Source: Patescibacteria group bacterium (GTDB taxonomy: Bacteria > Patescibacteriota > Microgenomatia > 0-14-0-10-38-17). Taken from it: a stretch of DNA of 64,000 nucleotides. The position numbers were made by a program, and so were the translations under genes. Under the pieces are notes generated by a model. The model did not search any database, was not told where the DNA came from, and was given only the letters and a program-made list of their open reading frames with translations. How positions within the stretch are numbered: the first letter of the stretch is position 1; every line of letters begins with the position of its first letter. The stretch covers positions 463,437 through 527,436 of the forward strand of contig JBMNNJ010000001.1 in NCBI GenBank assembly GCA_050953885.1, in the 5' to 3' direction. Below, one piece after another: positions 2 through 22,088 of this stretch.

Positions 2-2764
2 ACAAGTCCGGGGCAAAAGTTACATGTGCAGGGTACTATTCAAGTTGGTAGCTCTACTTCTGGCGGAAACTTCTACCAAGATGCCCAAACTGGTTGGGAA
101 AGCGTAGTATCTGTTTATCGTGCAGGAGTGCTGAAAAGCGGAATAACAACAAATGGAAACGATGCAATTGGTTTATCAACAGGTGGTATCGCTTGGACTA
201 ATGCAAAATTGGCAATTTTAGGAAACGGCAATGTCGGCATCGGGACGACGAGTCCGGGGGCGAAGTTAGATGTGAGAGCGGGGAATCTTCGAGTTTATGG
301 CGGTAGTGATATTATCTTGCAAGACGACTCAACCGATCCTGGAGATTTGATATTTAGAGATAGTAGTAACACTGAATATGGAAGAGTCTATTCAGCAAGC
401 GGCGGGGCCCTTCATTTAAGTGGTGGTTCAAATACAGATGCTGAACTTACCGTTTATGATTCTGGAGCAATTTATTTCAACTCCGGCATTGGCAACAGAA
501 CCTCGCAGTATCACCAACTACACATCGATGCCGGGACCTGGGAGGTTTTCCGATATAGCTCCAGCCGAAAACTCAAATCAAACATAACTGATTTAGAAAT
601 TGACTCCTCAAAGATATACGACCTCCACCCGGTTTCTTTCACTCCTAACGATAACCCGGATATTAGGAATTTTGGGTTTATTGCCGAGGAGGCTATTGAA
701 ATAATTCCCGACTTGGTCTTGCTTGAGGCCGACGGTAGTCCTGGAGGTTTTCGATACGCCGATTTAAGCGTGCTTATACTTAACGAAATGATCAAGCAAA
801 AACCCATTATAGACAATATTTCCCTTGAATCAATTGACGATTTTAAGCCCAAGGAGGCTAGCGATTCTGCCTTCAGTTTAGTAAAAAAATCTACCGAGAA
901 AATAATTAAAAATGCCGCAGTTTTTGCCGAATTAGCGACAGCCAAGATTTATTCTGGACTTGTCGAAACCACTAACCTTATCACTGATAATTTGACCGCT
1001 AAAAGAATCACCAGCGAGGAGGTTATTTCGCCCCTTATTGAGACCGAGGAGATTAAGTTTAGCGAAAATGCCCGCCTTCGCCAAGGCTCCGGCGGGCAGG
1101 CAAAAGTAGCCATCGTTAATGCTGACGATGAGCCGACAGCGGAGTTTAACACGGAAACAAAAGAAACCACCCTCTTTGGCGACTTGGAGGTGGGCGGCAA
1201 TGTCGGTATTGGGCAGGAAGTCAGCGCCCCCAAGGCCAGCTTTGGCGATTTGCTGGCGCAAAAGATTAACACGGATGAAATTCAGGCAAACACGATTCAC
1301 GCGGATACGGCGCAGATTAGCGCGGATGCGACTATTTCCGGGACTTTATACGTTGACCGCGTGGTGGCCCGGCAGGGAGGGTTTGGAGAATTATTGGCGG
1401 AGAACATCAGCATGGACAGCATAAAGTCTATTGTTAAAGAAGAGGTAGGGATCCTGAATTCCACCCAAGGCGGACAGGCAAGCCAGGATGACGGGGGCGG
1501 AAGTCAGGATGATGATGTTCTTAGCCGTCATTCTGACGAAAGTCAGAATCTGGACAGCGGAGAACCAAGCCAAGAAGAATTCGACCTTCAGGCGCTTTTG
1601 GCAAAAGTGGAGGAATGGGCGGGGACAAGCGCTAAGAACGACTTAACGCTTGAGTGCACAACTGGGGCAGAAAACCAGATCCTGAATCAAGTTCAGGATG
1701 ACGGTTCGGTGGTGAGTCAGAATGACGAGGGCGGGGTGGTTCAGGATGACGAGGGCGGGGTGGTTCAGGATGACGGGAATCTTAATAGTCATCCTGACGA
1801 AAGTCAGGATCAAACCTTAAACCAAGCCCAAAAGAAAAACCTTTGCCTAGTGGATACCGACTTTACCGTTTTGGGCGGGCGGACCTCTCTGGCCGACACT
1901 GCCATCGCCGGCCAACTTTCCGTGGGCAGTTTAGTGATTAACAATAATTCCCTTGATGTTTTAGGCGACACTTTATACATTCAAAAATTAGCCATGGGAG
2001 GGCTGGACATCTTAAACGGCAAACTCACCGTGGACATTGACGGCAATGTCTTTATCGCCGCTCATTTAACCGTGGGCGGGGGCCTGGCCACCAACGAGAT
2101 TAGGCCGATGGAAGGGGGAGATATAACCTTCAATCTGGCTAACGTCATCCCAGACCCGATCCGGGATCAGGGAGAAACAGATCCTGACTTTCGTCAGGAT
2201 GACGGGGGTGGGGCGGTTCAGGATGACGGGAACGAGACGGGAAATAACACGGGATTTGGAAAGTTGTTAGTGAAGGGAATAAATAACGAAACGGTTGCCT
2301 CAATTGACGCCTCCGGCGCGGCCGAGTTTAAAGAGATAGCCACGGATTTATTGCGAATCAACGCGGATAAAGAAGCATCCGAATCAGCCCTCCTTATTGC
2401 CGCCGGCGAGAATTTTGAAAATATCGGCATTCAGGCACCGGGGATCAAGACCAACGCCACCGCCGGCGAGGCCACCCTACCGGCCGGAGAGAAAGAAATA
2501 ATTATCTATAATGACAAACTAACCGACCAGTCGCTGGTTTACCTCACCCCCACCGCGGACACTGGAAACAAAATTTTGTATGTCAAAGAAAAGGTAGGCA
2601 ACACGAATCAAGAACACGAATCAAACGAAAGAGACACGAAATTAACGAATGAAAACGAATTAAACGAATGGAACACGAATGAAACGAATGGTGGATATTT
2701 CGTAGTAGGGCTAAACGAAGCGCTTAACTGGGACGTACGGTTTAACTGGTGGATTATTAACTGA
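2..2764 (+). CDS. Tail-fibre/tail-spike-like repeat protein with an internal intramolecular-chaperone (Peptidase_S74-like) domain. The 5' end is truncated by the window edge, and the ORF carries in-frame insertions of intergenic repeat modules.
   Basis: The reading frame is open from nt 2 with no upstream stop. It contains TSPGxKLxV/NVGIG beta-helix-like repeats. The S74 chaperone signature is SSSRKLKSNITDLE...HPVSF...FGFIAEE...DGSPGGFRYADLSVLILNEMIK. Three low-complexity QDDGG/DPDFRQDD segments are encoded by repeat words, and the last ~30 aa are encoded by the acgaa linker array. Confidence 0.55.
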   Translation, partial: TSPGQKLHVQGTIQVGSSTSGGNFYQDAQTGWESVVSVYRAGVLKSGITTNGNDAIGLSTGGIAWTNAKLAILGNGNVGIGTTSPGAKLDVRAGNLRVYGGSDIILQDDSTDPGDLIFRDSSNTEYGRVYSASGGALHLSGGSNTDAELTVYDSGAIYFNSGIGNRTSQYHQLHIDAGTWEVFRYSSSRKLKSNITDLEIDSSKIYDLHPVSFTPNDNPDIRNFGFIAEEAIEIIPDLVLLEADGSPGGFRYADLSVLILNEMIKQKPIIDNISLESIDDFKPKEASDSAFSLVKKSTEKIIKNAAVFAELATAKIYSGLVETTNLITDNLTAKRITSEEVISPLIETEEIKFSENARLRQGSGGQAKVAIVNADDEPTAEFNTETKETTLFGDLEVGGNVGIGQEVSAPKASFGDLLAQKINTDEIQANTIHADTAQISADATISGTLYVDRVVARQGGFGELLAENISMDSIKSIVKEEVGILNSTQGGQASQDDGGGSQDDDVLSRHSDESQNLDSGEPSQEEFDLQALLAKVEEWAGTSAKNDLTLECTTGAENQILNQVQDDGSVVSQNDEGGVVQDDEGGVVQDDGNLNSHPDESQDQTLNQAQKKNLCLVDTDFTVLGGRTSLADTAIAGQLSVGSLVINNNSLDVLGDTLYIQKLAMGGLDILNGKLTVDIDGNVFIAAHLTVGGGLATNEIRPMEGGDITFNLANVIPDPIRDQGETDPDFRQDDGGGAVQDDGNETGNNTGFGKLLVKGINNETVASIDASGAAEFKEIATDLLRINADKEASESALLIAAGENFENIGIQAPGIKTNATAGEATLPAGEKEIIIYNDKLTDQSLVYLTPTADTGNKILYVKEKVGNTNQEHESNERDTKLTNENELNEWNTNETNGGYFVVGLNEALNWDVRFNWWIIN

Positions 2765-2924
2765 GACACGAATTAAACGAATGGAACACGAAACCAAACG
2801 AATAGAAACGAATCAAACGAAAGGAGAATGAATAAAAGCGAATAAGAGACACGAATTAAACGAAAGAAACACGAATCCAAACGAATGAAAACGAATTAAA
2901 CGAAAGAAAACGAATGGAACGAAA
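2595..2924. repeat. Gene-3' linker array: 10-11 bp phased (a)acgaaNNNN units in the sense orientation cacgaat. It begins inside the 3' end of ORF1.
   Basis: There are about 28 units, cacgaattaa / acgaatggaac / acgaaaccaa and so on. The pattern begins inside the ORF1 3' end, and about 15 units follow the stop. The outer end gacacgaattaaacgaatgg is shared with the array at 3339-3440. Confidence 0.8.
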
Positions 2925-3338
2925 ATGATTTTACACAAAGAATTAAGTTACCAAATAATTGGCGCCGTTTATAACACCAGAAAAATTTATGGCCCCGGTC
3001 AGAAAGAAATTGTTTACCAAAAAGGCCTTGCCGAAGAGTTAAAAGAAAATAATATTCCCTATAAGAGAGAGGTAAACATTAATATTATTTCTCCCAAAAG
3101 CGGCCGTATTTTGAGCAATTATCGGGTTGATTTTGTTATTAAAGAAAGGGTAATTTTGGAATTAAAATCATTAAAATTCCTCCCTCAAAAAATGGAGCAA
3201 CAGTTGTATTCCTACCTTCGTTCAACACCCTATGAAGTTGGATATTTAATTAATATGGGTGGCCCCGAAATTGACATTAAGCGGGTTATCCTCACCAATG
3301 ACCGCAAACCCTATCTCCACCTCTTTCACGTTCGTTAG
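2925..3338 (+). CDS. GxxExxY family protein (PD-(D/E)XK_3-type putative nuclease)
   Basis: It has the motif GQKEIVY (G-x-x-E-x-x-Y) followed by YRVDFVI...ILELKS, which is typical of PDDEXK_3. The gene is nested between inverted acgaa linker arrays. Confidence 0.55.
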   Translation: MILHKELSYQIIGAVYNTRKIYGPGQKEIVYQKGLAEELKENNIPYKREVNINIISPKSGRILSNYRVDFVIKERVILELKSLKFLPQKMEQQLYSYLRSTPYEVGYLINMGGPEIDIKRVILTNDRKPYLHLFHVR

Positions 3339-3440
3339 ATTCGTTTCTATTCGTTTTATTCGTGTCTCATTCGTTAAATTCGTTTTCTTTCGTTAAATTC
3401 GTGTCCTTCGTGTCCCATTCGTTTAATTCGTGTCCCATTC
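3339..3440. repeat. Inverted copy of the linker array (attcgtg orientation)
   Basis: Its reverse complement begins gaatgggacacgaattaaacgaatgggacacgaa and ends aacgaatagaaacgaat, matching the two ends of the 2765-2924 array. Confidence 0.8.
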
Positions 3441-5444
3441 TTCAAACAGCGGGTCGGCGGGAGTGGGACTAGGAGAAGGCAATTCTTGCGGCTGAATTTC
3501 CGGCACCATTTCTTCTTCTGGCCCTACCGGAATTTCCGGCGCCGCTTCCTCGGGAGGCAGTTGGATTGGCGAGGCTTGCGGCGTCGGTAGCGCCGGGGGT
3601 TCCTGCAATTGCCCGCCGGCCTCCTCTTCCTCTACCACCGTTTCTTCTTTCTTGGGCAATTTTTCCTCCATCTCTTTCAGCTCTTCCTGAACCTTTTCAA
3701 AGTCCGCCGAAGCCGGCTCCGTTAAGGAAAGCACCGTCTGCAGTTCCAAGGCCGCCTTCTCCCACTTTTCCTGCGCCTTATAAGCAGCCGCTAAATTATA
3801 ATGGGCGTTGGCATGATCCGGCTTTAACTCCACCGCAATTTCAAACTGGCGCTGGGCCGATTCAAAATCGCCTAAGGCGTAATATAACCCTCCCCAGGCA
3901 ATCCGCAAATTGGGATTAACCGGATCAAGTAAAACCGCCTGACGAAGCGAGTCAAGCGCCCACTGCTGGGCCCCTTCGGCCACGCCGATAATCTGCTGAT
4001 AAATTTGGGATAGGCTATACCAGTTGTCAGCCTTCAGGGGATTGGCCGCGGCGGCCGCTTTGCCCTCCCGAATTGCCTGCTGGATTAAAATGCTCACCTG
4101 TTGTTTATCCTGATCGCTTAAATTTTCCTGCTGGGAAAGAGCGTTGGCTAAAGCCAAATTGGTGTTGGCATAGGCCAAATGATAAAAATCCTGATAGGGG
4201 TTTTTCTCCAACGCTTCAATTTGTAAGTTATAAGCATTGCCGCCCTCGCCACGGTCGAAAGCCTCCAGGGAACGGGAGAAAACCGCATCCGCTCCTAAAA
4301 GCCGGCCATACCACCAGCCCAAAGCAATAAGAGCCAAAAGGGGAATAAAAGCGATTTGGGGGGAATAAGAACGAGAAAAGGCTTTTTCTCCCCTCACCTC
4401 CCCCAACAAAACAAAGAAAAGCACCCATAAAACCAAATCAAAGGGAAGAAAAAGACCGGCTACGGCAAGAAAAATAAAAGCCGGCGAAAGGTTTTTAAAA
4501 CCTCTTCGGGAAACTTTAACCAGCAAAAACAAAAACGATCCCAAGCCCAAAAGCCCCACCTCGGTTAACAAGTTTAAATATTCATTAAAAGAAGAGGGAA
4601 AAAGGGCGTTCCAAAAAGAAGTGGCGTTTACCGCCGCCGGCCGAAAACGGGTATAGGCTTGGGAAAAATTCTCCGGCCCGGCGCCGAAAAAAGCGCTTTG
4701 CCAAGTTTTAAAATTCTCCACCGCCACCACCCAAGCCACCTGAGGAGAAAGCAAAACCGGCTTAGCCTCCACCAAGTTTATTCCCCCCAAAACCAAGCCT
4801 AAAACCAAAACCACCATCGCCGCCAAGGCCGCAAACGGCTGCCAAGTTAACTTTTCCTGGGAACGAAAATGACGGACAACAATTGCAAGTAAATAAACAA
4901 GGCTGGCCAAAACAAAAACCAGCGCCGAAAAAATAGAACCGGTGGGGCTCCAGACCTTATTTTCCAAGAAAGGCCACGAAAACCATTTTTTAAGCACCCC
5001 CAGATATTGGCCCATTAAAACTAACGCTAAAAATAGGGCCGAAATTGTGGCCGGCAGTTGGGGGTTGGCCTTTGGCAGTTGGGCCAAAAGAAAAGCCAAA
5101 AGAAAACCACCCAAGACAATAGCCGTTTTACTGCTTAAGGCGTTAATTTTAGTCGCCGCCGTGGGAGTAAAAAGAGAGGAAAGAGCAAAAACAGCCACCA
5201 AAGCAAGCGCCGGCCAAAACCAGCGGGGAAAGAAAAGGCTTACCTTTTCTTTTTTAAAAAATTTTTCCCCCAGAAAGATTAACCAGCCCACTAACGTTCC
5301 CCCTAAGAGAAGAGTGATTTTGGGAAGGTTGTAAGCATCAAATAAAGAAGGTACAAAGAAAAGAGGCAGAAGAAAAATAAGAAGATAAAGCCAAATTTTA
5401 AGAAGCCGGTTTTCGCCTTTGGCAACGGACAGCATTTCTTCCAT
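3423..5444 (-). CDS. O-antigen ligase/Wzy-like polytopic membrane protein with a C-terminal TPR region and a Pro/Glu-rich tail
   Basis: There are about 12 hydrophobic segments. A periplasmic loop reads FGAGPENFSQAYTRFRP, which is Wzy_C-like. TPR-like A/Y/L periodicity follows in the C-terminal third. Confidence 0.5.
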   Translation of the reverse strand: MEEMLSVAKGENRLLKIWLYLLIFLLPLFFVPSLFDAYNLPKITLLLGGTLVGWLIFLGEKFFKKEKVSLFFPRWFWPALALVAVFALSSLFTPTAATKINALSSKTAIVLGGFLLAFLLAQLPKANPQLPATISALFLALVLMGQYLGVLKKWFSWPFLENKVWSPTGSIFSALVFVLASLVYLLAIVVRHFRSQEKLTWQPFAALAAMVVLVLGLVLGGINLVEAKPVLLSPQVAWVVAVENFKTWQSAFFGAGPENFSQAYTRFRPAAVNATSFWNALFPSSFNEYLNLLTEVGLLGLGSFLFLLVKVSRRGFKNLSPAFIFLAVAGLFLPFDLVLWVLFFVLLGEVRGEKAFSRSYSPQIAFIPLLALIALGWWYGRLLGADAVFSRSLEAFDRGEGGNAYNLQIEALEKNPYQDFYHLAYANTNLALANALSQQENLSDQDKQQVSILIQQAIREGKAAAAANPLKADNWYSLSQIYQQIIGVAEGAQQWALDSLRQAVLLDPVNPNLRIAWGGLYYALGDFESAQRQFEIAVELKPDHANAHYNLAAAYKAQEKWEKAALELQTVLSLTEPASADFEKVQEELKEMEEKLPKKEETVVEEEEAGGQLQEPPALPTPQASPIQLPPEEAAPEIPVGPEEEMVPEIQPQELPSPSPTPADPLFEEWDTN

Positions 5445-5582
5445 ATCTTTATACTATTATAGAAGCGGGGAGGTGTCAAGAGATATATGCAACGTAAAGC
5501 GTAACTTGTAATGCGTAATAAGCAAGTGCAAAGCGCAAATATCAAAAATTAAAATACAAATGTAAAATGCAAAAAGTTAGTA

Positions 5583-5700
5583 ACTCGCAATAAGTAAATT
5601 CAAAATTTAAAATTCAAAATTGCAAGTCAAAAGTTAAAAGTTTTTTTTGCTTTACTTTTGAATTTTAACTTGTAATTTTGACTTTTAACTTTTGACTTTT
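5583..5700. repeat. Type-1 word hairpin (tcaaaag / ttaaaag / caaaat words)
   Basis: The left arm caaaatttaaaattcaaaattgcaagtcaaaagttaaaag is followed by a loop and then the right arm ttttgaattttaacttgtaattttgacttttaacttttgac. Confidence 0.7.
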
Positions 5701-5711
5701 AACTTTTAGTT

Positions 5712-5876
5712 ATTCGATTCTGCCCGCCAGGCGGCGGATTCGTCAGAATGACGGCCACGATTAGCGTCATTCTGAACTTGATTCAGAATCGTTATTGATA
5801 TCTAAAGAACGGTAGATCCTGACTTTCGTCAGGATGACAGCGACGGGGATGATTCTGTCTGCCAGCAGGTGGACAG
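5712..5876. repeat. Type-3 composite GC palindromic element
   Basis: Its modules are ccgccaggcggcgg, attcgtcagaatgacgg..cgtcattctga, ctgaacttgattcag, gatcctgactttcgtcaggatgac and gtctgccagcaggtggacag. Confidence 0.8.
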
Positions 5877-5996
5877 AAGTTAAAAGTTCTTTTGCTTTAC
5901 TTTTTAATTTTAACTTGTACTTTTGACTTTTAACTTTTGCCTTTTGAATTTTTTTCGTTCCCCATTCGTTTTAATTCGTGTTTTCCAATCCCGTGT

Positions 5997-7064
5997 TTAC
6001 TTTAAATACCCTAACGGATTAACGTTGCCCGCGGGGGCGCGGATTTCAAAGTGAAGATGAGTGCCGGTAGAGCGGCCGGTGGAACCCATTTGACCAATCA
6101 CCTGCCCCCGCAAAACCGCCTGACCGGCGGAAACCGCCACCGAAGAAAGATGACCATAAAGCGTTTTCGTGCCGTCCTGATGATCAATAATCACATGGAT
6201 ACCATAAGCTTGGGGGACGCCCCAACCGGCCTGAACTACCGTGCCTCCCTTGGCGGCCACCACCGCCGGCGCGCTACTGTTGGCGATATCAATCGCCTTA
6301 TGATACCAGGAATAGCCTTGGGAAATACTGCCGGTGGTAGGCCAAATAAAATCGCCTAAAGCGCCGGCTGCCGGCGGCGTCTGCGCCACCAAGGATGCGG
6401 GCGTTTGCGGCGCGGCCGGTTCCCACAACTTCACCTTCGGCTTTACCCCCCCGGGAATAATTAACTCCTGCCCCACCGCTAAAGCAAAAGTTTCGTCATT
6501 AGCAAAGGTGTTAAAAGGGAAATCAACAATCGCCTGCGCACTAACACCATAAGTTTTGGCCAAAGAATAAACCGTTTCTCCCCGCCGCACTGTATGAAGC
6601 ACGCCGGAAACCGGCAGAATGCGCAAAACCTGACCGGGCTTAATATCGTCAATCGAACCCAAATCATTGGCCCAGCGAATGGTATCTAAGGAAACGCCAA
6701 ATTTTTGGGCAATAGAGGAAGCCGTATCGCCCTCCACCACCGTATACTCCACCACTCCCCCCCGCTGATTCTCCCCCACGGCAGAAGCGCCTAAAACTTG
6801 AAAATTATTTCCCCCTATTCCCAAAACGGCTCCCTCCTGACCAAAATCTTCATCCTTAGGAGTTAAAAGAGGAGAAAGGGCAATCCCCGCAATTACCAAA
6901 ATGCCCACCGAAAAATGACTTATTGGCCGCGCCATTTTCCCCCGCCGCTGATAAAGAATTTCGGTAAGACCGGTTTTGGCTTCCTGAAAAAGGCCTAAGC
7001 TTATTAAAAAATGCCGACGAAAGAAAGAATACCAAGCACGGAGATAGGACAAGAGATCATTCAT
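5997..7064 (-). CDS. LysM-domain M23 family metallopeptidase
   Basis: There are two LysM-like segments (GDTASSIAQKFGVSLDTIRWAN and GETVYSLAKTYGVSAQAIVDFN). The C-terminal M23 motifs are HKAIDIA and GSTGRSTGTHLHFEI. Confidence 0.8.
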   Translation of the reverse strand: MNDLLSYLRAWYSFFRRHFLISLGLFQEAKTGLTEILYQRRGKMARPISHFSVGILVIAGIALSPLLTPKDEDFGQEGAVLGIGGNNFQVLGASAVGENQRGGVVEYTVVEGDTASSIAQKFGVSLDTIRWANDLGSIDDIKPGQVLRILPVSGVLHTVRRGETVYSLAKTYGVSAQAIVDFPFNTFANDETFALAVGQELIIPGGVKPKVKLWEPAAPQTPASLVAQTPPAAGALGDFIWPTTGSISQGYSWYHKAIDIANSSAPAVVAAKGGTVVQAGWGVPQAYGIHVIIDHQDGTKTLYGHLSSVAVSAGQAVLRGQVIGQMGSTGRSTGTHLHFEIRAPAGNVNPLGYLK

Positions 7065-7140
7065 ACTATGTATAATAAAAAACTCAAATGTTAAATCGCA
7101 AATCTCAAAACTACATGTTAAAACTTAAAACTAAAAACTC

Positions 7141-7300
7141 AATCCGCCCGCTGGCGGATTCGTCAGAATGACGGCAGCCGTGCCGTCATTCCGGACTTGA
7201 TCCGGAATCTGTGTTATTGTCAGAAAACGCAGATCCTGACTTTCGTCAGGATGACGTTTACAGCAGAATAATGTTATTCGCTCATTCGTGTCCATTCGTT
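7141..7300. repeat. Type-3 composite element, a direct copy relative to 5712-5876
   Basis: The modules are ccgcccgctggcgg, attcgtcagaatgacgg..ccgtcattc and gatcctgactttcgtcaggatgac, occurring in the same order. Confidence 0.8.
7232..7291. repeat. Left arm of a 60-bp perfect inverted repeat bracketing rho
   Basis: The sequence gatcctgactttcgtcaggatgacgtttacagcagaataatgttattcgctcattcgtgt is the exact reverse complement of 8585-8644. Confidence 0.9.
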
Positions 7301-7329
7301 TCTAATTCGTTTTTATTCGTGTTTTTTTC

Positions 7330-8544
7330 TTACCTTCTCCCCAAATTCTCCAAAAACTCCTCATTATTTTTGCTTTTGGCCAGCCGTTCTAAAATTACCT
7401 CGGTGCGCTCATCCGGCCCCAAAAGATCAATCATTTTCCTAAAAGTAACAATTTTGGGATAAAGCTTTTCGCCAAACAAAAGCTCCTCCTTGCGCGTGCC
7501 GGAACGCTGAAGATCAATGGCCGGGAAAACCCGCCGTTCCGCTAAGCGTCGATCCAGATGCAACTCCATGTTGCCGGTGCCCTTAAATTCCTCATAAATC
7601 AGGTCGTCCATTCGCGAGCCCGTGTCTACCAAGCAGGTGCCGATAATCGTCAGGCTGCCGCCATTTTCAATATTACGGGCGGCGCCAAAAAATTTCTTGG
7701 CCGGAAAAAGAGCCGCCGGATCAAAACCGCCGGAAAGAGTGCGACCAGAGGTAGGGATAGCTAAATTATAAGCCCGCGCCAAACGGGTAATGGAATCCAT
7801 CAGCAAGAAAACATCTCTGCCCATTTCTACCAAACGCTTGGCGCGCTCCAAAGCAATTTCCGCGGCAAAAGTTTGGTTTTCCGGCGATTCATCAAAATTA
7901 GAAGCGGCCACCTCCCCTTTTCCCCCGGTGATTTTTTTGACATGATGGCTAATATCGGTTACTTCCTCCGGCCGCTCGCCAATTAAAACCACCATCAAAT
8001 GAATTTCGGGATAATTAGCAGCCACTCCTTGGGCGATATCCTTTAAAAGCCAAGTTTTGCCTGCCTTGGGAGGAGAAACAATTAACCCCCGCTGGCCAAT
8101 GCCAATCGGCGCCACCAAATCAATCAGACGCGTGGAAAGAATCTCCGGCTTTGTTTCCAATTTTAACCAGCGATCGGGATAAACCGGCGGCAACTCTTCA
8201 AAAACCGGCCGCGTGCCCACTTCTTCCGCCGGCAGGCCGTTAATTTTTTCTACCCGCAAAAGGCCGTAATAGCGTTCATTTTCCTTGGGAGCGCGCACCT
8301 GACCGCCCACCATATCCCCTTCGCGCAGGCCAAACCGATAAACTTGAGAAGAGGAAACATAAATATCCTCCTCCGAGGGGGCAAAATGAGGCCGCAAATA
8401 GCCATGACCATCCTCGGCAATTTCCAAAACTCCCTCCCGATATTCGGTGGGTAAATTGGCGTCGGGAATGGGCAAACCAACTCCTTGAGACCTTTCCTCT
8501 TCGGGAATGCTCTTAACCGGTTGAGAAGAAAAATTAGAAGACAT
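7330..8544 (-). CDS. rho: Transcription termination factor Rho
   Basis: It has an N-terminal S1-like RNA-binding region and the Walker A motif [10 protein letters not shown]. The RecA-type core matches Rho throughout, ending in the characteristic [14 protein letters not shown] tail. Confidence 0.9.
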
Positions 8545-8584
8545 CGTTAGAAAACACGAATTAAAACGAATTAAAAACGAATAA

Positions 8585-8644
8585 ACACGAATGAGCGAAT
8601 AACATTATTCTGCTGTAAACGTCATCCTGACGAAAGTCAGGATC
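8585..8644. repeat. Right arm of the 60-bp perfect inverted repeat bracketing rho
   Basis: The sequence is acacgaatgagcgaataacattattctgctgtaaacgtcatcctgacgaaagtcaggatc. Confidence 0.9.
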
Positions 8645-8831
8645 GGCTTTAAAGCTTGATGCTTGAAACGCTTGAGGCTTGAATCGCTTGAATCGTTTAA
8701 TGTTTTTACGTTTCAAACGTCTCATGCATTACGAAAGTCAGGATCGGCTTTAAAGCTTGATGCTTGAAACGCTTGAGGCTTGAATCGCTTGAATCGTTTA
8801 ATGTTTTTACGTTTCAAACGTCTCATGCATT
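8630..8831. repeat. Perfect tandem duplication of a 101-bp unit with gcttga words
   Basis: The unit acgaaagtcaggatcggctttaaagcttgatgcttgaaacgcttgaggcttgaatcgcttgaatcgtttaatgtttttacgtttcaaacgtctcatgcatt occurs at 8630-8730 and again at 8731-8831. Confidence 0.85.
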
Positions 8832-9136
8832 TCAAGCATTTCACGCATGATTCTGAATCAAGTTCAGAATGACGTTAAATTATGGCTGTTATTCTGACGA
8901 ATCCGCCGGCTGGCCCTGCACCAGCACGGTATAGGGTTGGCAGGCAGGATCTATCTTAAGGAACAACGGACGATTCATTAATAATCACCATCATCCATTA
9001 TGATATGGGAAAAATACGAGAGGATACGGGAAAACAAACGAGAAGAAATCCTGTTCCCTCCCGTGTGCTTACTTTATTTTTCTATCCCGTTTCATCCTGT
9101 GTTATTTATAGCAGAAGCAAGCTTAATTAAACCACA

Positions 9137-9904
9137 CTAATCTGTTTTTGTCAAACCCCCCGCGCTTAAGACGGCAAAGTCAAAAAACGACGGCACCTGG
9201 GGCCAGCCTTGAAAAACAGAAATTTTTCTCACCACATCCCCCACTTTTGCTTCCGCTTCCACCGTTGTTCCCTGTCTGGGAAGAGGTTCCTTAGTAGTTA
9301 CCGTCAATTGCCGGGAAGGATCAGTACTATAAAAACGAACATTAACAAAATTTGCTCCTGCCGGCAGGTTATTAATAGTACCGCTTTTCGCCAAGCCTTG
9401 GCAACCTCCACCGCCCCCCAAATAATAACGCGCCACTTTATAACCGCTGCTTTGATAATAAACCGCCGCCTCAATGTTCTCCGCCCCCTCCCAGCAAAAA
9501 GTTAAAGCAGTGCCGCCATAACTGATATCAGCCGGAAAAATTCCTCCGTCCAAGGTAATGCTGTTGAGCCAAAAAGTGGTCGCCTGACCAGGAAAAATTT
9601 GCCGCTTGGTTACCTCCCCTGTTGGATCTTGGGTAACCTTAACTTCCGCCTCTTCCCCTCCAGGCTCAAGAGTAAGAAAATTCGGAAAATCCTGACCTGC
9701 CTCAATCGCTCTTAAGGCCTCCTCAATACCCGCCTCGGCGGCTTCAAAAGCCTTGCTGGAAGCGGTTTCTTTCTCGGAAATGGAGATATCGGTGGTGGTC
9801 CGCGCCACTAACGCCAGCCCGGTGGTAAGAGCCACCGATAAAACCAAAAGGATAATCAAAAGCGCCTGACCGGAAGATTTCCCTCCCCTGTTCATTAATA
9901 ACAA
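9137..9904 (-). CDS. PilX-N-like type IV pilus minor pilin/assembly protein
   Basis: The N-terminus GQALLIILLVLSVALTTGLALVA resembles the PilX_N hydrophobic segment. The rest is Gly/Thr-rich and predicted extracellular. Confidence 0.4.
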   Translation of the reverse strand: MLLMNRGGKSSGQALLIILLVLSVALTTGLALVARTTTDISISEKETASSKAFEAAEAGIEEALRAIEAGQDFPNFLTLEPGGEEAEVKVTQDPTGEVTKRQIFPGQATTFWLNSITLDGGIFPADISYGGTALTFCWEGAENIEAAVYYQSSGYKVARYYLGGGGGCQGLAKSGTINNLPAGANFVNVRFYSTDPSRQLTVTTKEPLPRQGTTVEAEAKVGDVVRKISVFQGWPQVPSFFDFAVLSAGGLTKTD

Positions 9905-10065
9905 GAATATAACAAAAAGAAGAGGGTGTCAAGCAAAAAGAGTATTAAGTATAAAAAAACTCAAATGGCAAATGTTAAAACTAAAAACTACAACTCAAAA
10001 CTTAAAACTTGCAAAATACATACACTTTGAAAAGATTTGACATTTGACATGTAGTTTTGAGTTTT

Positions 10066-10251
10066 GATCCGCCAGCTGGCGGACAGCATCATCCCCGTAG
10101 CTGTCATTCCTAAATTAAATTCAGGACAGGCTCTGACGAAAGTCAGGATCTGCGTTCTTTAGATATTAATAATAACGATTCTGAATCAAGTTCAGAATGA
10201 CGCTAATCGTAGCCGTTATTTTGACGAATCCGCCGGCGGGCGGATTGAGCT
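10066..10251. repeat. Type-3 composite element with terminal ccgccNgcNggcgg palindromes
   Basis: The order is ccgccagctggcgg, then catccccgtagctgtcat, cctaaattaaattcagg, gatc..gacgaaagtcaggatc and ctgaatcaagttcag, ending in ccgccggcgggcgg. Confidence 0.8.
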
Positions 10252-10760
10252 TTAACATTTGAGTTTTGAATTTATACTTCCGTTTTCCACAATAACTTTT
10301 TAAAACCCCAAAACCTCTCTTTTTGAAGCCAAAAATAGCAATTTATAAAACTACAGGATACGCTATTTTTAGGGTGTTTTTTTCTATAGGCTTGACAAAA
10401 GAAATCCCTTGTGATAATCTTAAAAATGATGAAGAAGGCAAAAGGGAATAGGACAAATAAAACAAATAAAAGCGGGGAGAAAGAAGCAAGCTTTTTCAAA
10501 ATGGCTTTTTTCCGTCAGCAGTTGGAGGCAATGAAAAAATTAGGGGGAGAATTAATTCTGCAGGAAGGATAAAAAAAGGGCAAAAAAAGAGCATCGCTAT
10601 CGCCGATTCCACTGGTGGGAAAACCCGATTAGCAATGCCCTTTTTTGACTAAAAGAGAATGGAAATTTGCTAAACTAAAGTTATTAAAAAGATAGCAAAA
10701 AAAGGAAAAAAAGTCAAGCCCGAAAATACAAAATAAATTAAGCAACTTACAAAAGTTGCT

Positions 10761-13550: not shown

Positions 13551-13740
13551 GTGACAGACAAATGCAAATCTCAAATCGCAAATCTCAAAACTCAAAACTA
13601 CAACTCAAAACTCAAAACGCAAATGGCAAATCTACATGTTAAATGTTAAAACTTTTTTAAAGTTTAAAGTTGTTTTTTTTAGATTTGAGTTTTAACATGT
13701 AGTTTTGAGTTTTGCGATTTAACATTTGAGTTTATTTTTC
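13551..13740. repeat. Type-2 word hairpin (ctcaaaa / cgcaaat / ctacatgttaaa words) with an aaacttttttaaag loop
   Basis: The left arm caaatgcaaatctcaaatcgcaaatctcaaaactcaaaactacaactc...gcaaatctacatgttaaatgttaaaac pairs with the right arm gttttaacatgtagttttgagttttgcgatttaacatttgagttt. Confidence 0.75.
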
Positions 13741-14740: not shown

Positions 14741-14945
14741 TCAATCCGCCCGCGGGCGGGTTGAGTTGTAGTTTTAATCCGCCGCCTGGCGGACAGAATC
14801 ATCCCCATAGCTGTCATCCTGACGAAAGTCAGGATCTGGCTGATTCTGAATCAAGTTCAGAATGACGCTAATCGTGGCCGTCATTCCTGAATTAAATTCA
14901 GGACAGGTTCTGACGAATCCGCCAGCTGGCGGGTTGAATTTTAAC
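14741..14945. repeat. Type-3 composite element, the inverted arrangement of the 10066-10251 type
   Basis: The modules are ccgcccgcgggcgg, ccgccgcctggcgg, catccccatagctgtcat, gacgaaagtcaggatc, ctgaatcaagttcag, cctgaattaaattcagg and ccgccagctggcgg. Confidence 0.8.
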
Positions 14946-14964: not shown

Positions 14965-15086
14965 GGTTCCCGGCAATGACCTATTTTCCCCCACCTTGCG
15001 GCGGGGTATCGTCAGCGCTGTCGCGTTTCACGACTCTGTTCGGAATGGGAAGAGGTGGGACCACGACGCTCCAATCACCGGGAACC
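14965..15086 (-). rRNA. rrf: 5S rRNA
   Basis: The reverse complement matches the 5S consensus GGTCCCACCT..TTCCGAAC..GTGAAACG..GCGCTGA. Helix I is closed by ggttcccgg/ccgggaacc. Confidence 0.75.
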
Positions 15087-15431
15087 AAATTTTAAAACTT
15101 ATCTTTAATAAGAGTAGGAAAGAGCATCTTTAAAATGCCGAAAACCATTAGTACCGGTCAGCTTAATTTGTTGCCAAACTTACACCTCCGGCCTATCAAC
15201 CAGGTAGTCTCCCTGGGGTCTTAAAGACTCTTCATCTTGGGATCGGTTTCCCGCTTGAGATGCTTTCAGCGGTTATCCAAAACAAACATAGCTACCCAGC
15301 ATTGCGGCTGATGCCACAACTGGACCACCAGAGGTTTGCCCATCCCAGTCCTCTCGTACTAGGGACAGATTCCCTCAAGAATCAAAACGGTTACTGCGGA
15401 TAGAGACCAAGCTGTCTTACGCATATTATCC

Positions 15432-16176
15432 CTCTATTACTAGAGGTATAGACTATATCACCACCCCGCCATAACGGGGGTTTGGCGTATTATAATGGCG
15501 TTAATTTTTAAGATTATCTTCTTAAAGATTTATCTTAAACAGCCACTATCTAGTTTTTATTAAAAAACTAAGTCGTTACGGGGACAATAATTTGCTCTTT
15601 ACCAAATATTTTTTCACTGTTATGGAAGTAATTGTTCTTTTCTTGGAATAATTAAGAAAAGAAAAACCATCAATATCCTTAGCGATTTTCATGAGCATTT
15701 CCGGCGAGTAATCTCTAGCATTATGAGGATATTTTTTGATTATCCCTAATGATAGTTTTGCCTGGTCATGCTTAATCCTTAAGTAAGGATATAATGCTTC
15801 CAAAACCTCTTCGACAGCCTTGAAGCCAACAATGTTATACTCGCAAATGCCATCATTGCGATCGCGAATATAACCATACTTTAGCTTCTCTTTCAACCAT
15901 AACAGAAACCAACGATACTTTTTATTTTGATAAAAAATAACGCTGGCTTTAACCTGAAAACCAAGACGGTAATCCGATTTCTTAATAAGTTGAAAAAGAA
16001 TACAACCATCACCATCTAAAAATCCGGCGATGTAGGCTTTATCTTTGTCTAGCATAATATTGTCTTCCCTCGGTGTTGTCCTTTGTCGACCAGCTTAAAA
16101 TCAACAAGGATTTCACCGATATTAGCCAAATTTATCTATCATATTACTACGATAGAGCGCAGTATTCTACGCTTTG
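15432..16176 (-). mobile_element. Group I-type intron in 23S domain V, near E. coli position 2593, encoding a LAGLIDADG endonuclease
   Basis: The exon sequence GAGCTGGGTT is interrupted. The exon resumes with GCGTAAGACAGCTTGGTC, which corresponds to CGTGAGACAGTTCGGTC. ORF 15576..16055 lies entirely inside the insertion. Confidence 0.6.
15576..16055 (-). CDS. LAGLIDADG homing endonuclease (single-motif)
   Basis: The motif [13 protein letters not shown] is present and the ORF is located inside the 23S insertion. Confidence 0.8.
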
Positions 16177-16670
16177 AACCCAGCTCACGTAGGTTTTTAA
16201 TGGGCGAACAGTCCAACCCTTGGGGGCTTCTTCACCCCCAGGTTAACCTGAGCCGACATCGAGGTCGCGAACTGGCCCGTCGATATGTACTCTTGGGACC
16301 AACCACGCTGTTATCCCCGGGGTAGCTTTTATCCGTTAAGCCCCGACCCTTCCACGCGGTATCGGGGGATCACTAAGACCTGCTTTCGCATCTGCTCGAC
16401 CCGTCGGTCTTGCAGTTAAGCTGGCTTTTGCCTTTGCACTTTACTCGCGGTTTCCATCCGCAAGAAGCCAACCTTTGTACGCTCGCGTTACCTTTTAGCA
16501 AGCGACTGCCCCAGTCAAACTGCCCACCAGACACTGTCCTAGTTTGCGTTTCCAGCAAACATTAGTCAGAATTGTTATTTCCAAAGAGAGGTGTTTCATT
16601 GTTGCCCCGCCAAAAGGCGGGGCTCCCTCCTACGCTAAACAATTGGAAATAACTCCTCAATATCAAGTTG

Positions 16671-16702
<32 letters not shown>

Positions 16703-16829
16703 AGTAACTAGGCCGCATCTTCACAGCCATTTCAATTTCGCCGAGTAGAGGTTTGTAGACAGTTGCTTGGTCGTTGGGTCTTTCATACCGGTCGGAACTC
16801 ACCCGACAAAGGACTTCGCTCAAAACTAA

Positions 16830-17478
16830 TTGAGTTTTGGACTATATCTTATCGCCTAAGGCGATTCTAGCGTATAGTCTCTGGGGATTCTAAAAAAAAT
16901 GGTCTTCTCTTCCTAGTATTCATCGTTTCGATTATTTTAACAATCTTTCTTACCCCTTCTAAATGAAGATGTTCACTATTTTCCATTAAGGACAACACTT
17001 GAGAAAATTTCTCAAAATCATCCCTTTTAGATGTTTTAAGGGGATATTGTTTGAAGAAAGGGATAATTATTTCCCTTAATTCTTTTTGGGATCGGACACA
17101 ATAACGATAAAGATCTTCTTTATGGTTATCATCCCTTCTATTAACAAAAAGAGAACCACAACCGAAAAAGTTTTTCATTACTTTTAGGGCTTGTTTACTC
17201 TTTTCCCCTTGAGTGACGATGAACTCCGGCATAATCTGCCAATCGGAAGAAGTAGTCGGATTTTTATGAAGGCTAATTGTAAAACAGCCTTCACCGTCAA
17301 CAAACCCAACTATCCAACCAATTATTTTTAGTCTTTCCTGCTGATTGCCTCTACTGGAAGAATTTTTACTTGGCATAAAAATGACAATTTAATTATGCCA
17401 GAGTATCTCCAGAATAACAAGGTTTTCCAGCATATAGCTAGATTTTACTACGGCAGTGTTTAATGTCCTTACCGTAGA
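16830..17478 (-). mobile_element. Group I-type intron in 23S domain IV, near E. coli positions 1917-1931, encoding a LAGLIDADG endonuclease
   Basis: On one side the exon block ...GAAGCCCCGGTGAACGGCAGCAGTAACTCTAAC is present. On the other side the exon resumes with ...GCGAAGTCCTTTGTCGGGTGAGTTCCGACC. The boundaries are approximate. Confidence 0.5.
16867..17376 (-). CDS. LAGLIDADG homing endonuclease
   Basis: The motif IIGWIVGFVDGEGCF is present and the ORF lies inside the second 23S insertion. Confidence 0.8.
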   Translation of the reverse strand: MPSKNSSSRGNQQERLKIIGWIVGFVDGEGCFTISLHKNPTTSSDWQIMPEFIVTQGEKSKQALKVMKNFFGCGSLFVNRRDDNHKEDLYRYCVRSQKELREIIIPFFKQYPLKTSKRDDFEKFSQVLSLMENSEHLHLEGVRKIVKIIETMNTRKRRPFFLESPETIR

Positions 17479-17479
17479 A

Positions 17480-17640
17480 CAGTTAGAGTTACTGCTGCCG
17501 TTCACCGGGGCTTCAGTTCCTCGCCCCCTGGGCGAGAATAACAATTTCCGCTGATTAAAAACAGATTTCCACAGATAAATCCGTGTTAATCCGCTCAAAA
17601 ATCCGCGTTAATCCGTTATTCTTGTCCAGAGGACAAGGTT
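17480..17640. repeat. 23S expansion segment built from cggattaac words, about 100 nt longer than the corresponding region after E. coli position 1852
   Basis: The words cggattaacgcgg / gagcggattaacacgg repeat after the conserved block GGAAGGTTAA. Confidence 0.5.
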
Positions 17641-17751
17641 CCTTAACCTTCCGGCACTGGGCAGACTTCAGCCCCTATACCTCCTCTTTTAGGAGTTTGC
17701 AGAGACCTGTGTTTTTGGTAAACAGTCGCCAAGCAGTCTTTTGTTGTAGCC

Positions 17752-17885
17752 CGCCTCGCGCTCCGCGCGAGGAAATCCGAATTTCTAAACCCGAAACCCG
17801 AAACAAATCACAATTTTTCAAATCCGCCCGCTGGCGGATTGAATTTGTTTCTAATTTCGTTATTCGTGCTTTCGAATTTCCTTGT
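17752..17885. repeat. Hairpin insertion in 23S made of ccgaaa/tttcg words around the core palindrome ccgcccgctggcgg
   Basis: The left arm ggaaatccgaatttctaaacccgaaacccgaaacaa pairs with the right arm ttgtttctaatttcgttattcgtgctttcgaatttcc. The core is the same as in the intergenic type-3 elements. Confidence 0.6.
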
Positions 17886-19167
17886 GCGAAGTACAAGGCA
17901 GGCAGGGCATCTTGCGAACTTACGCCCAGCTTTTTTGCCTAGTTCCTTAAACCTCTTTCTCTCGCTCGCCTTGGTCTACTCGACCTGCCCACCAGTGTTG
18001 GTTTTGGGTACGGTTTTTGCCTGTTCTTGCCGCGACAATTTTCTCGGAAGCCAAAATCACCCAACGCTTTTTTCCTTTTGGGAAAAAAGGCCATCACGGC
18101 TCGGGTTAAAACAAACTAATGGATTTTCCTATTAGCTCTACCTTGCCGTTTAGACAGGAAATCATTAACCTGCTCGGGTTATCTGGCTTCGTCCTGCCCC
18201 AGCTGATAACGAACAAACAAAAGTACAGGAATATTAACCTGTTGGCCATCGCCTACTCCGCCTAAAACAGCGGACTGAGCTTAGGACCGACTAACCCTCC
18301 GTCGACGAACGTTGCGGAGGAAACCTTAGGCATTCGGCGGCCCGGATTCTCACCGGACTTTCTCGCTACTCATACCGGCATTCTCACTCCCCGACGCTCC
18401 ACCCTCGCCTTACGGAAGGGCTTCACCGCCTCGGGGACGCTCCCCTACCATCCGCCAAAGGCGGATCTGGGACTTCGGTAGATAGCTTATCCTCGATCAT
18501 CTTCGGCGCTAATTTTCATCCGCCAGTGAGCTGTTACGCTTTCTTTAAAGGATGGCTGCCTCTAAGCCAACCTCCTGGGTGTCTTTGAAAATTAACTTCC
18601 TTCAAAAACTTAGCTATCATTTAGAGACCTTATTCGCCAGTCTGGGTTGTTTCCCTCTCGCCCTATCAGCTTAGCCCGATAGGACTGACTCCTTGTTCTT
18701 TTATCTTTGTATTCGGAGTTTGGTTGAAATAAATAGCTTGCGCCACTTATTCCATCCAGTGCTCTACCCCAAAGTAAAAATAAACAAGGGCTATGCCTAT
18801 ACATATTTCGGGGAGAACCAGCTATCACCAAGCTCGATTGGCATATTACCCCTAACCACAAGTCATCCAAACCTTTTGCAGCAGATACTGGTGCGGGCCT
18901 CCCCCCGTCTTTCGACAGGATTCACCCTGCTCATGGTTAGCTCGCTTGGTTTCGGGTCTTCCGCCATTTCTCCTCCAGAAAAAACTGGAAACGCGCTTTT
19001 CACACTCGCTTTCGCTTTGCCTCCCCCCGCTTAGCGGGGTTAGACCAAGAAACAGCGGGAACTCACCGGTTCATTCTTCAATAGGCACGGAATCACCCCG
19101 CCAAGGCGGGGCTTTTCCTGTTTGTTAGCAAATGGTTTCAGGTTCTTTTTCACTCCCCTTCCGGGGA

Positions 19168-19207
<40 letters not shown>

Positions 19208-19524
19208 TAGCAAGAGTATTTAGCCTTATCCCGTGGTCGGGACAGATTCGCACAAAGTTTCTTCCCTTGTGTTACTTGGGTACTAGGTTCATTCTTCTCT
19301 GGTTTTGTGTACCAGACTTTCACTGTCTTTGGTTATTTATTCCAAAATATTCCACTACCAAAAAAGAATGAATAATCCTAGCCCCGCAACCCCCACCTTG
19401 TGCGAAGCACAAGGTAAGTTTAGGCTTTTCCGTTTTCGCTCGCCGCTACTTGCGGAATCACTTTCGTTTTCTTATCCTTCGGGTACTTGAATGTTTTCTT
19501 CCCCCGAGTTCCCTCACGCCGCTT

Positions 19525-19640
19525 CGCGGCGAACTCAAAACTCAAAACGCAAAACTCAAAATTTAAATTTTAAAAAATTTTGAGATTTTAGTTACAGTTT
19601 TGACATTTGAGATTTAAAATTTAAGTTCGCAGTGAAACGG
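19525..19640. repeat. Type-2 word hairpin (ctcaaaa / cgcaaaa / tttgag) inserted near the 5' end of 23S
   Basis: The sequence gaactcaaaactcaaaacgcaaaactcaaaattt...aaatttgagattttagttacagttttgacatttgagatttaaaatttaagttc is flanked by 23S sequence. Confidence 0.55.
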
Positions 19641-19849
19641 CGTGCAGCGCAGTTTTCACTGCGCTGGGTTTCCCCATTCGGAAACCACCGGATCAAAGGT
19701 TGGTTGGCACCTCCCCGGCGCTATCGCTGCCGCCAGCGTCCTTCTTCGGCTCTTGCTACCAAGGCATCCACCATTTGCCTTATGGCATTTTAAAAATGCG
19801 TCTTCCTACCCTTATTAAAGATAGGTTCCAAATTTTCAAAGTGCGAAAG

Positions 19850-19922
19850 TGGAGCCAGCCGGGATTGAACCGGCGACCTTCCCGTTGCAAACGGGATGCT
19901 CTTCCCGCTGAGCTATAGCCCC
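19850..19922 (-). tRNA. tRNA-Ala(TGC)
   Basis: The sequence is GGGGCTATAGCTCAGCGGGAAGAGCATCCCGTTTGCAACGGGAAGGTCGCCGGTTCAATCCCGGCTGGCTCCA. It has the G3:U70 pair and the anticodon loop cgTTTGCAAcg. CCA is not encoded. Confidence 0.9.
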
Positions 19923-20195
19923 AAAGCAAATGTAATGTAAAATGTAAAAAGTAGGGGCGTATTGCATACGCCCGCCAACAGGAAACAAACGACCAATGCT
20001 AAATTCAAAAGTTAAAATTTAAAATTCAAAATTGCAAGTCAAAAGTTAAAAGTTCTTTTGCTTTACTTTTGAATTTTGCATTTTGCATTTTGAATTATTT
20101 TTATTCGTTTCCCATTCGTTTTAATTCGTGTCTTTTTAGCCCGTCACTGCGAGCAAATTAGAATTATATCGGTAAAGGGCTTTCTTGTCAAAGTT
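19923..20195. repeat. Composite intergenic-type element (linker, type-1 hairpin, GC palindrome) occupying the tRNA-Ile/tRNA-Ala spacer of the rRNA operon
   Basis: It contains the palindrome gtaggggcgtattgcatacgcccgcc and a type-1 hairpin (caaaagttaaaatttaaaattcaaaattgcaagtcaaaagttaaaag...). It ends with the linker ttcgtttcccattcgttttaattcgtgtc. Confidence 0.6.
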
Positions 20196-20270
20196 TGGTG
20201 GGCGGCGAAGGAATTGAACCTTCTGCTTCCTCTTTATCAGAGAGGCGTTCTGCCGGTGAACTAGCCGCCC
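20196..20270 (-). tRNA. tRNA-Ile(GAT), with CCA encoded
   Basis: The sequence is GGGCGGCTAGTTCACCGGCAGAACGCCTCTCTGATAAAGAGGAAGCAGAAGGTTCAATTCCTTCGCCGCCCACCA. The anticodon loop is ctCTGATAAag. Confidence 0.9.
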
Positions 20271-20285
20271 GAAATTTTAGTGCGA

Positions 20286-20308
20286 GCAGAGAGGCGTTCT
20301 GCCGGTGA
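20286..20308. repeat. 23-nt direct duplicate of an internal tRNA-Ile segment (cagagaggcgttctgccggtgaa)
   Basis: The sequence is identical to 20238..20260, which lies inside tRNA-Ile. The copy sits between tRNA-Ile and the 16S 3' end. Confidence 0.7.

Positions 20309-20417: not shown

Positions 20418-22088
<1,671 letters not shown>

Follow-up and report, generated by a model that had tools for sequence, protein, structure and literature searches.

The question raised by ORF1, the open reading frame (ORF) at the left end of a 64,000-nt stretch of contig JBMNNJ010000001.1 of a Patescibacteria group bacterium (the window), is how repeats that otherwise lie between genes came to be read in frame within a gene. 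ORF1 is the functional 3' end of a conserved surface-fibre gene of the Candidate Phyla Radiation (CPR; Microgenomates/Shapirobacteria type). The reading favoured here, at a probability of about 0.8, is that four tolerant loop or linker positions of this functional gene were colonised in frame by the genome's own intergenic repeats. The in-frame repeats were confirmed as real: the initial annotation had proposed repeat words translated in frame within ORF1, and the counts of core, flank and hairpins bore this out against chance. Loci from other assemblies used for comparison are given with L-numbers (L001 to L006 and others).

The 19-nt palindromic core TCCTGACGAAAGTCAGGAT was found in 11 copies in the window, three in ORF1 and eight intergenic, compared with none in 100 shuffles. 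The pattern GGTTCAGGATGACG matched ten times where 0.19 matches were expected, and four of the ten lie in ORF1. A census of perfect hairpins (ATYC(N3-5)-loop-complement) gave altogether 24, including four in ORF1 (1530-1549, 1679-1699, 1791-1810 and 2181-2200), none in other ORFs of at least 120 aa outside the rRNA operon, and one further within an ORF (17822) inside the 23S rRNA gene, the remainder being intergenic. When an imperfect fifth at 2144-2168 is counted, ORF1 has five GTCAT...GRATC hairpins. The flanking 9-mer GTCATYC[TCG][GA] is present 28 times: ten times in ORF1 (all within 1484-2227), 16 times between genes and twice in the other approximately 43 kb of coding sequence. All seven CAGGATGAC-type flanks of ORF1 have, according to their coordinates, the codon phase CAG-GAT-GAC in common. 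Tandem Repeats Finder (TRF) detected a 24-nt unit in 3.5 tandem copies at 1691-1775 and ACGAAT-type arrays at 2600-2691, 2764-2923 and 3331-3440.

The frame is open across all the inserts, as the initial annotation had stated, and ORF1 has no stop from the window edge to 2764. The repeat stretches listed there are also real, but the list needed correction. The first, placed at 1483-1560, is repeat-derived but really covers approximately 1450-1553, beginning in a loop-interrupted second hairpin GATCCTGAAT...CAGGATGAC. Two hairpins had been omitted, a perfect one at 1679-1699 (ATCCTGAAtcaagTTCAGGAT, encoding ILNQVQDD) and an imperfect one at 2144-2168 (gtcATCCCAGAcccgaTCCGGGATc, VIPDPIRDQ). The 30 aa encoded by acgaa words are an in-frame array product but not the C-terminus: they are internal (2600-2689) and followed by 24 conserved residues.

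Two hairpins recur in the window, hairpin A (gtcATCCTGACgaaaGTCAGGATc) and hairpin B (gATTCTGAAtcaagTTCAGAATgacg), and the repeats of ORF1 occupy four hot spots, or sites 1 to 4 (Table 1). Hot spot 1 falls in variable, low-occupancy columns of the family alignments. Its hairpin B is intact in L006 (1-27), while the loop is interrupted independently by differing sequences in the window (1450-1495) and in L001 (1380-1437); the hairpin loop may be a favoured break or insertion point. Hot spot 2, with column occupancy below 30% in the family, has 24-nt units composed of a G-rich spacer and a 3' half-hairpin, followed by the perfect hairpin A at 1788-1811 (SHPDESQD) and a degenerate tail encoding QTLNQAQKK. 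It measures 60 aa in the window, which has one 24-nt unit more, against 35 aa in L006, and on a common AGTCAT flank the hairpin top encodes SHPDESQD in the window and SHSGLDPES in L006.

In hot spot 3 (38 aa in the window, 23 aa in L006), the order and orientation of the hairpin pair match those of an intergenic module pair at 7185-7255. The closest relatives, L006 and L005, have no hairpins there but an array of acgggat/acaggat words, and nucleotide alignment with L006 showed no convincing target-site duplication at this site. Hot spot 4 differs from L006 by a clean 39-nt (13-codon) indel within the array, and L005 shows the same 13-codon difference. Its acgaa stretch has no stops in the reading frame and two in each of the other frames, compared with two or three in every frame of the intergenic array. 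The site 4 words are those of the locus's own downstream array in the window (also in L006 and L005) and in L003: the longest exact string shared by site and array is 25 nt in the window, 14 nt in L003 and 8 nt, a weak match, in L002. Strings shared across lineages are mostly at most 7 nt long, the exceptions being lineage pairs with the same array word.

Table 1. Features of ORF1 and of the intergenic repeats in the window.
Feature	Coordinates	Strand	Description
ORF1	26-2764	+	3' part of a large surface-fibre gene; frame open to the left window edge
Hot spot 1	1450-1553	+	Loop-interrupted hairpin B (GATCCTGAAT / CAGGATGAC), QDD-type half-hairpin units, hairpin A variant gtcATTCTGACgaaaGTCAGAATc (1527-1550); peptide GILNSTQGGQASQDDGGGSQDDDVLSRHSDESQNL
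Hot spot 2	1678-1834	+	Perfect hairpin B 1679-1699 (ILNQVQDD), 24-nt units, perfect hairpin A, degenerate tail
Hot spot 3	2144-2235	+	Imperfect hairpin gtcATCCCAGAcccgaTCCGGGATc 2144-2168 (VIPDPIRDQ); hairpin A on minus strand 2180-2203 (DPDFRQDD); 24-nt unit 2204-2227 (GGGAVQDD)
Hot spot 4	2600-2692	+	In-frame ACGAAT-word array, peptide NTNQEHESNERDTKLTNENELNEWNTNETN; from TRF and ortholog indel
Copy of TCCTGACGAAAGTCAGGAT	1531-1549		In ORF1; two mismatches, mutually compensating in the stem
Copy of TCCTGACGAAAGTCAGGAT	1792-1810		In ORF1
Copy of TCCTGACGAAAGTCAGGAT	2181-2199	-	In ORF1
Conserved last 23-24 codons and stop	2693-2764	+	GGYFVVGLNEALNWDVRFNWWIIN; from ortholog alignments; model pLDDT approximately 90
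Predicted junction-spanning peptides of ORF1			...LECTTGAENQILNQVQDDG..., ...NLNSHPDESQDQ..., ...ETDPDFRQDDGGG..., ...KVGNTNQEHESNER...
ACGAAT-word array	2764-2923	.	Intergenic; inverted partner 3331-3440 beyond the GxxExxY PD-(D/E)XK gene
Multi-hairpin module	5712-5882	-	Reference copy of the repeat family
Module	7140-7262	-	Holds the hairpin pair in hot spot 3 order
Module	8590-8910	+	Interrupted by a perfect 101-bp tandem duplication
Module	10066-10250	+	Intergenic
Module	14775-14935	+	Intergenic
Module	43222-43388	-	Intergenic
Module	50750-50892	+	Palindromic tccgccagctggcgga ends; fold -82 kcal/mol, z = -10.5

ORF1 was aligned with 7, 4, 22 and 97 relatives, the last giving a 98-member family alignment, and in all four alignments the repeat-derived stretches formed gap or low-occupancy columns between conserved blocks. 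On both sides of each insert, the sequence runs collinear with that of orthologs in five independent assemblies. L004, whose ortholog is syntenic, has neither hairpins nor arrays at sites 1, 3 and 4, only short unrelated linkers, and no hairpin of the GTCAT...GRATC family was present in the 17 kb read from that locus. Site 2 of L004 has a deletion and a frameshift (7190-7220) and is not comparable, the ortholog being split into several ORFs; the split falls exactly at hot spot 2 and stems either from an error in sequencing or from a genuine disruption. In the nucleotide alignment of the window with L006 the differences cluster at the four sites, and all indels in comparison to L006 and L005 are multiples of three and preserve the frame. 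Other orthologs have inserts of their own at the same places. L001 carries hairpin B in frame at sites 1, 3 and 4, the site 4 copy followed by four 24-nt units, and another hairpin at a fifth place, and L002 and L003 have LRSAQDDG- and SFASAQDDG-type hairpins with 21-24-nt units at site 3.

The longest ORF call, 26-2764, comprises 912 aa; its frame is already open at nt 2 and closes with the stop codon at 2762-2764. Pfam placed a Peptidase_S74 domain (PF13884) at aa 187-240 of the translation from nt 2 with 37 bits against a cut-off of 22, so that ORF1 exceeds the gathering score for the endosialidase-chaperone type of fibre proteins, and PHROGs gave a tail-fibre match. The approximately 680 aa downstream of the domain are atypical for such proteins and include a conserved C-terminal module with the terminus FNWWIIN. 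The homologs carry the names Shapirobacteria or Microgenomates, the best database protein match being 82% identical. A profile search with the ORF1 region found 5245 representatives, in which the region is the C-terminus of proteins of up to 7082 aa. Downstream of the orthologs in L001 and L004 are the same TPR, LysM-M23 and Rho genes. When the window is compared with L006, its closest relative, the flanking blocks (762 nt, with the block after site 4 among them) are 88% identical and under purifying selection (dN 0.058, dS 0.41, dN/dS 0.14). The conserved C-terminal segment is flanked by ACGAAT arrays on both sides.

An AlphaFold2 model of window positions 1820-2761, built from a 23-sequence alignment, had a mean pLDDT (predicted local distance difference test) score of 67.9 and a C-terminal beta-rich domain with a pLDDT of approximately 90. 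Residues 110-144, corresponding to site 3, and 263-288, corresponding to site 4, were below 50 and without secondary structure; residues 173-190 likewise scored below 50. Both inserts lie between confident beta-strands, the site 4 segment between strands 253-259 and 292-298. In the model, the inserts at sites 3 and 4 thus fall in low-confidence loops that would be compatible with the fold. A Foldseek search of the model against the PDB gave no match at E ≤ 0.001 and only weak similarities to tailspike and depolymerase C-termini.

The hairpins themselves are not specific to CPR, identical 24-26-mers being found across phyla. The exact 24-mer of hairpin A is present in at least 117 stretches of GTDB genomes, the majority of them Sphingomonas, where it often forms inverted doublets approximately 34 nt apart. 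It occurs also in Bacteroidota, Pragia, Vibrio, Oceanisphaera, Fibrobacter, Spirochaetia and one metagenome-assembled genome of Patescibacteria. Hairpin B was found in metagenomes in 133 copies in 120 loci, with 115 of the 133 outside long ORFs. Eight copies encode ILNQVQ[DN]D in frame, four or more of them in unrelated proteins that could be recognised: a GT2-like glycosyltransferase, a P-type ATPase, a DNA methyltransferase and a ComF-like protein (L140, L152, L172 and L223). The GT2-like glycosyltransferase carries a RHPDENQD hairpin as well. In-frame copies are therefore general and not restricted to ORF1. Hairpin B's C..G variant (ATCCTGAA/TTCAGGAT) is not specific to ORFs, as had been considered: 69 of the 77 C..G metagenome copies lie outside long ORFs. 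Since the variant is common outside ORFs, the identical 27-mer common to the window, L006 and L001, whose conserved coding parts are only approximately 73% identical, points to a shared element pool and not to conservation at the protein level.

A related family has been described in Pseudomonadati (PMC11893778; Nat Commun 2025), namely the Neisseria NTS CGTCATTCCCGCGMAVGCGGGAATCYRG and the wider Ssn-related motifs (SRM). These are oriented hairpins that are cut in single-stranded DNA by small GIY-YIG nucleases (Ssn), whose genes they flank, and of which Rickettsia, Wolbachia, Neisseria and Sphingomonas have more than 300 copies; the Neisseria NTS cluster around surface-protein genes and modulate the recombination of transforming DNA. 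Neither Patescibacteria nor in-frame (intragenic) copies are mentioned in that study. The window hairpins are likewise oriented and of high copy number, with a non-palindromic CGTCAT(T/C)C on the 5' side, a GNRA-like loop, G(G/A)ATC on the 3' side and a C after the palindrome, as in cGTCAT(C/T)CTGACgaaaGTCAG(G/A)ATC and cGTCATTCTGAActtgaTTCAGAATC. Copies identical to them flank small GIY-YIG genes in seven other loci, hairpin A in L052 (5579-5956), L122 and L037 (hairpin-gene-hairpin) and hairpin B in L161, L132, L195 and L181 (hairpin-gene-hairpin). The Pfam GIY-YIG scores of hairpin-flanked genes were 50 and 54 bits, and the nearest named homologs of the L161 protein are from Paceibacterota, Parcubacteria, Patescibacteria and Doudnabacteria.

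On this evidence, the colonisation of the fibre gene probably proceeded as follows. Two kinds of repeats entered, oriented GTCAT-stem-loop-stem-GRATC hairpins of the NTS/SRM type and short-word arrays (ACGAAT), and were then amplified and remodelled into the 24-nt half-hairpin units, the 39-nt array step, the swapped hairpin tops and the interrupted hairpin loop. Selection would have kept only in-frame, stop-free, hydrophilic and acidic versions (QDDG, HPDESQD, DPDFRQDD, NTNQEHESNE), the filter for frame arising because the downstream domain is needed. The outcome would be lineage-specific, fast-changing disordered loops within an otherwise conserved protein. The inserts are presumably translated, and the route of insertion was probably either a transposition-like spread or illegitimate recombination promoted by hairpins or nucleases together with gene conversion.

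Several observations weigh against colonisation by the genome's own repeats in this form. Neither a target-site duplication nor a clean element boundary was found at the inserts, so recombination or slippage could give the same picture as transposition. Hairpin B of ORF1 is of the C..G variant and all six intergenic copies in the window are of the T..A variant; it was thus not recently copied from them. The low pLDDT at the inserts is partly expected, the alignment being uninformative there. The published degenerate SRM pattern HGTCWYN(0-2)YYVSBRHN(0-5)WNVSBRGN(0-2)RNCYNB had no hits on either strand of the window. Furthermore, no Ssn homolog was found in the 64 kb by tblastn with two Ssn-like GIY-YIG proteins or by a crude GIY-YIG regular expression, nor a homolog of RAYT (REP-associated tyrosine transposase) by tblastn with the Y1 transposase of L001.

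An unlikely but not negligible extension is that the hairpins within the gene are themselves functional, as nuclease or recombination sites driving a cassette-like diversification of the fibre loops. The change between close relatives is concentrated at the four hairpin-bearing sites, a hairpin loop has been interrupted independently in two lineages, and the NTS of Neisseria offer an analogy in their position near surface-protein genes and their effect on recombination (PMC11893778). However, relaxed constraint in disordered loops and ordinary repeat instability explain the same pattern, and the window has no nuclease gene. A more specific form, in which an Ssn-type GIY-YIG nuclease with its gene elsewhere in the genome would target the in-gene hairpins in single-stranded form and so make them break-and-rejoin points for a rapid rewriting of the loops, is similarly doubtful. 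If it were true, hairpin-nuclease diversification would operate within coding sequence wherever this cosmopolitan hairpin family sits in frame, including the glycosyltransferase, P-type ATPase and methyltransferase cases of the metagenomes.

REP (repetitive extragenic palindromic) elements carry a conserved GTAG flank 5' of the palindrome. That the hairpins are REP/REPIN elements moved by a RAYT, an IS200-like Y1 transposase, and are not related to Ssn, is improbable to about the same degree. The Sphingomonas doublets are REPIN-like, and an IS200-like Y1 transposase gene (L001 2639-3259; Pfam Y1_Tnp, 24 bits, cut-off 23) directly follows the L001 ortholog on its downstream side, but nothing ties this gene to the GTCAT hairpins. 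The flank is GTCAT instead of GTAG, no RAYT match was found in the 64 kb of the genome covered, and no adjacency of hairpin and RAYT was seen, whereas identical hairpins flank GIY-YIG genes in the seven loci. As short extragenic palindromes in composite intergenic modules, the hairpins share features with REPs, REPINs and BIMEs, but REPs are typically kept out of coding sequence.

Far less probable is that the QDD-rich stretches are ancestral acidic low-complexity linkers, their resemblance to the repeats being due to chance or the intergenic copies being derived from the gene. Acidic linkers are indeed present at sites 1 and 3 in all orthologs, even the hairpin-free ones, and QDD motifs at site 3 in several lineages. 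Chance does not, however, account for exact identities of 19-24 nt to intergenic copies when none were expected, nor for perfect 8-bp palindromes kept inside ORF1. The same 24- and 26-mers also occur in unrelated phyla, mostly outside ORFs, the L004 ortholog, insert-free at sites 1, 3 and 4, comes from a contig whose 17 kb read held none of these hairpins, and the 27-mer shared with L006 and L001 is identical despite the divergence of the coding parts.

The initial annotation had offered as its alternative that ORF1 is a decaying gene open to colonisation by repeats. The frameshift in the L004 ortholog at hot spot 2 would fit this, as would the near exclusion of the repeats from other coding sequence. 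More than 912 codons are nevertheless open, the dN/dS of 0.14 includes the block after the last insert, the indels preserve the frame and the C-terminal domain is conserved in thousands of members. Because of the purifying selection, the synteny and the large conserved family, the alternative is rejected and its probability is very small. An assembly artefact, with chimeric joins at short repeats mimicking in-frame inserts, is equally hard to credit: the source is probably a metagenome assembly and contig L006 breaks exactly at a hairpin, but five independent assemblies have collinear flanks and analogous in-frame inserts, with the frame kept everywhere.

With colonisation by intergenic repeats as the preferred reading, the closest known parallel is that of the Rickettsia palindromic elements (RPEs), which were initially described from R. 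conorii (review PMC10969869). The initial annotation had called the inserts RPE-like, and this holds for the mode of action: a palindromic repeat with many genomic copies, intergenic ones included and far beyond chance expectation, lies in frame and without stops in a gene, adds peptides at places compatible with the fold, and is lacking from orthologs (sites 1, 3 and 4 of L004; the site 3 hairpins of L006 and L005). It does not hold for family membership. RPEs (RPE-1 to RPE-10) are approximately 100-150 bp long, have consensus peptides of their own and are found in many unrelated genes of an intracellular alphaproteobacterium; judged by element size and host, the repeats of ORF1 are none of these, being hairpins of approximately 25 nt, half-hairpin 24-nt units and word arrays at four hot spots in one CPR gene, reused in its orthologs.

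[quoted passage not shown] The RPE phenomenon, in which selfish palindromic repeats turn into protein sequence, is hereby extended to CPR and to a different type of element, the small GTCAT hairpins for which a link with Ssn single-strand nucleases has recently been drawn. The four hot spots, with empty, old and recent states in related genomes, allow repeat-born peptide loops to be traced stepwise. Peptides of the QDDG/HPDESQD type become recognisable as hairpin-derived in CPR and other proteins, and gene callers and repeat maskers should not cut such genes short at these sites.

Seven intergenic sites of the window have a module of approximately 140 nt (Table 1), composed in order of tccgccNNNNggcgga, hairpin A, hairpin B, sometimes further hairpins, gtcattctgacgaa and again tccgccNNNNggcgga. 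The invariant core shared by ORF1 and the modules is 22 nt of hairpin A, with some similarity further out in the flanks (...tagcY-GTCAT...ATCTGG). When the site 2 stretch of ORF1 was folded as RNA, z was -2.2, compared with -10.5 for an intergenic module, and there is consequently no sign of the coding copies forming the large composite structure of the module. With its palindromic tccgccNNNNggcgga ends the module is MITE-like, and in-frame MITEs (ERIC, BOX, Correia/NEMIS and QMITE1; PMC10969869) are likewise non-autonomous and can fuse in frame with host ORFs. The ORF1 copies are unlike MITEs in being internal sub-modules without terminal repeats, and no target-site duplication was recognised at the module ends or at the ORF1 inserts. 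No Rfam family reached the gathering score, and at E ≤ 1 positions 1400-10400 gave one sub-threshold match to a plant miRNA, taken as chance.

The perfect 101-bp tandem duplication (8630-8831; 2.0 copies, 100% identity) begins inside hairpin A of the intergenic module, which suggests very recent instability at the hairpin. A tandem array of half-hairpins resembling the 24-nt units of ORF1 (caggatgacgggga / gagaatgacgggga / gggaatgac) is located between genes at L001 9030-9100, which makes the half-hairpin array an intergenic type of repeat as well. The Y1 transposase gene of L001 has a GC-rich in-frame hairpin triplet of its own (ggggcggggttttcccgccc three times, approximately 2920-2990) and a second hairpin at 3086-3104.

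The short-word arrays downstream of ORF1 are inverted relative to each other and enclose a GxxExxY PD-(D/E)XK gene (Pfam PDDEXK_3, 2925-3338), whose position is conserved in the relatives. The array word varies by lineage: the window and L006 have ACGAAT/CGAAT, L004 and L003 have ACAGGA/ACGGGA, and L002 has GCAGAAAA; the loci compared were window 2764-3440, L004 8008-8580, L006 1150-1700 and L003 2709-3074. Most intergenic regions of the window further contain inverted pairs of heptamer arrays (AAAACTC, AAAAGTC, AAAATTC and their complements), which form long imperfect palindromes (for example 5596-5708, 5896-5953, 13565-13733, 35452-35618, 39258-39466 and 43152-43460) and often bracket the multi-hairpin modules. 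Similar heptamer arrays surround a 23S_rRNA_IVP gene in L001 (5423-5791).

The rRNA operon of the window (14968-22088, minus strand) has insertions in both genes, the 23S measuring 3.7 kb (model length 2925) and the 16S 1672 nt. LAGLIDADG-like motifs were noted by eye in two ORFs, 15576-16055, just downstream of the 23S match, and 16867-17376, inside the 23S. The census hairpin inside the 23S region is a tccgcc hairpin at 17822-17839.

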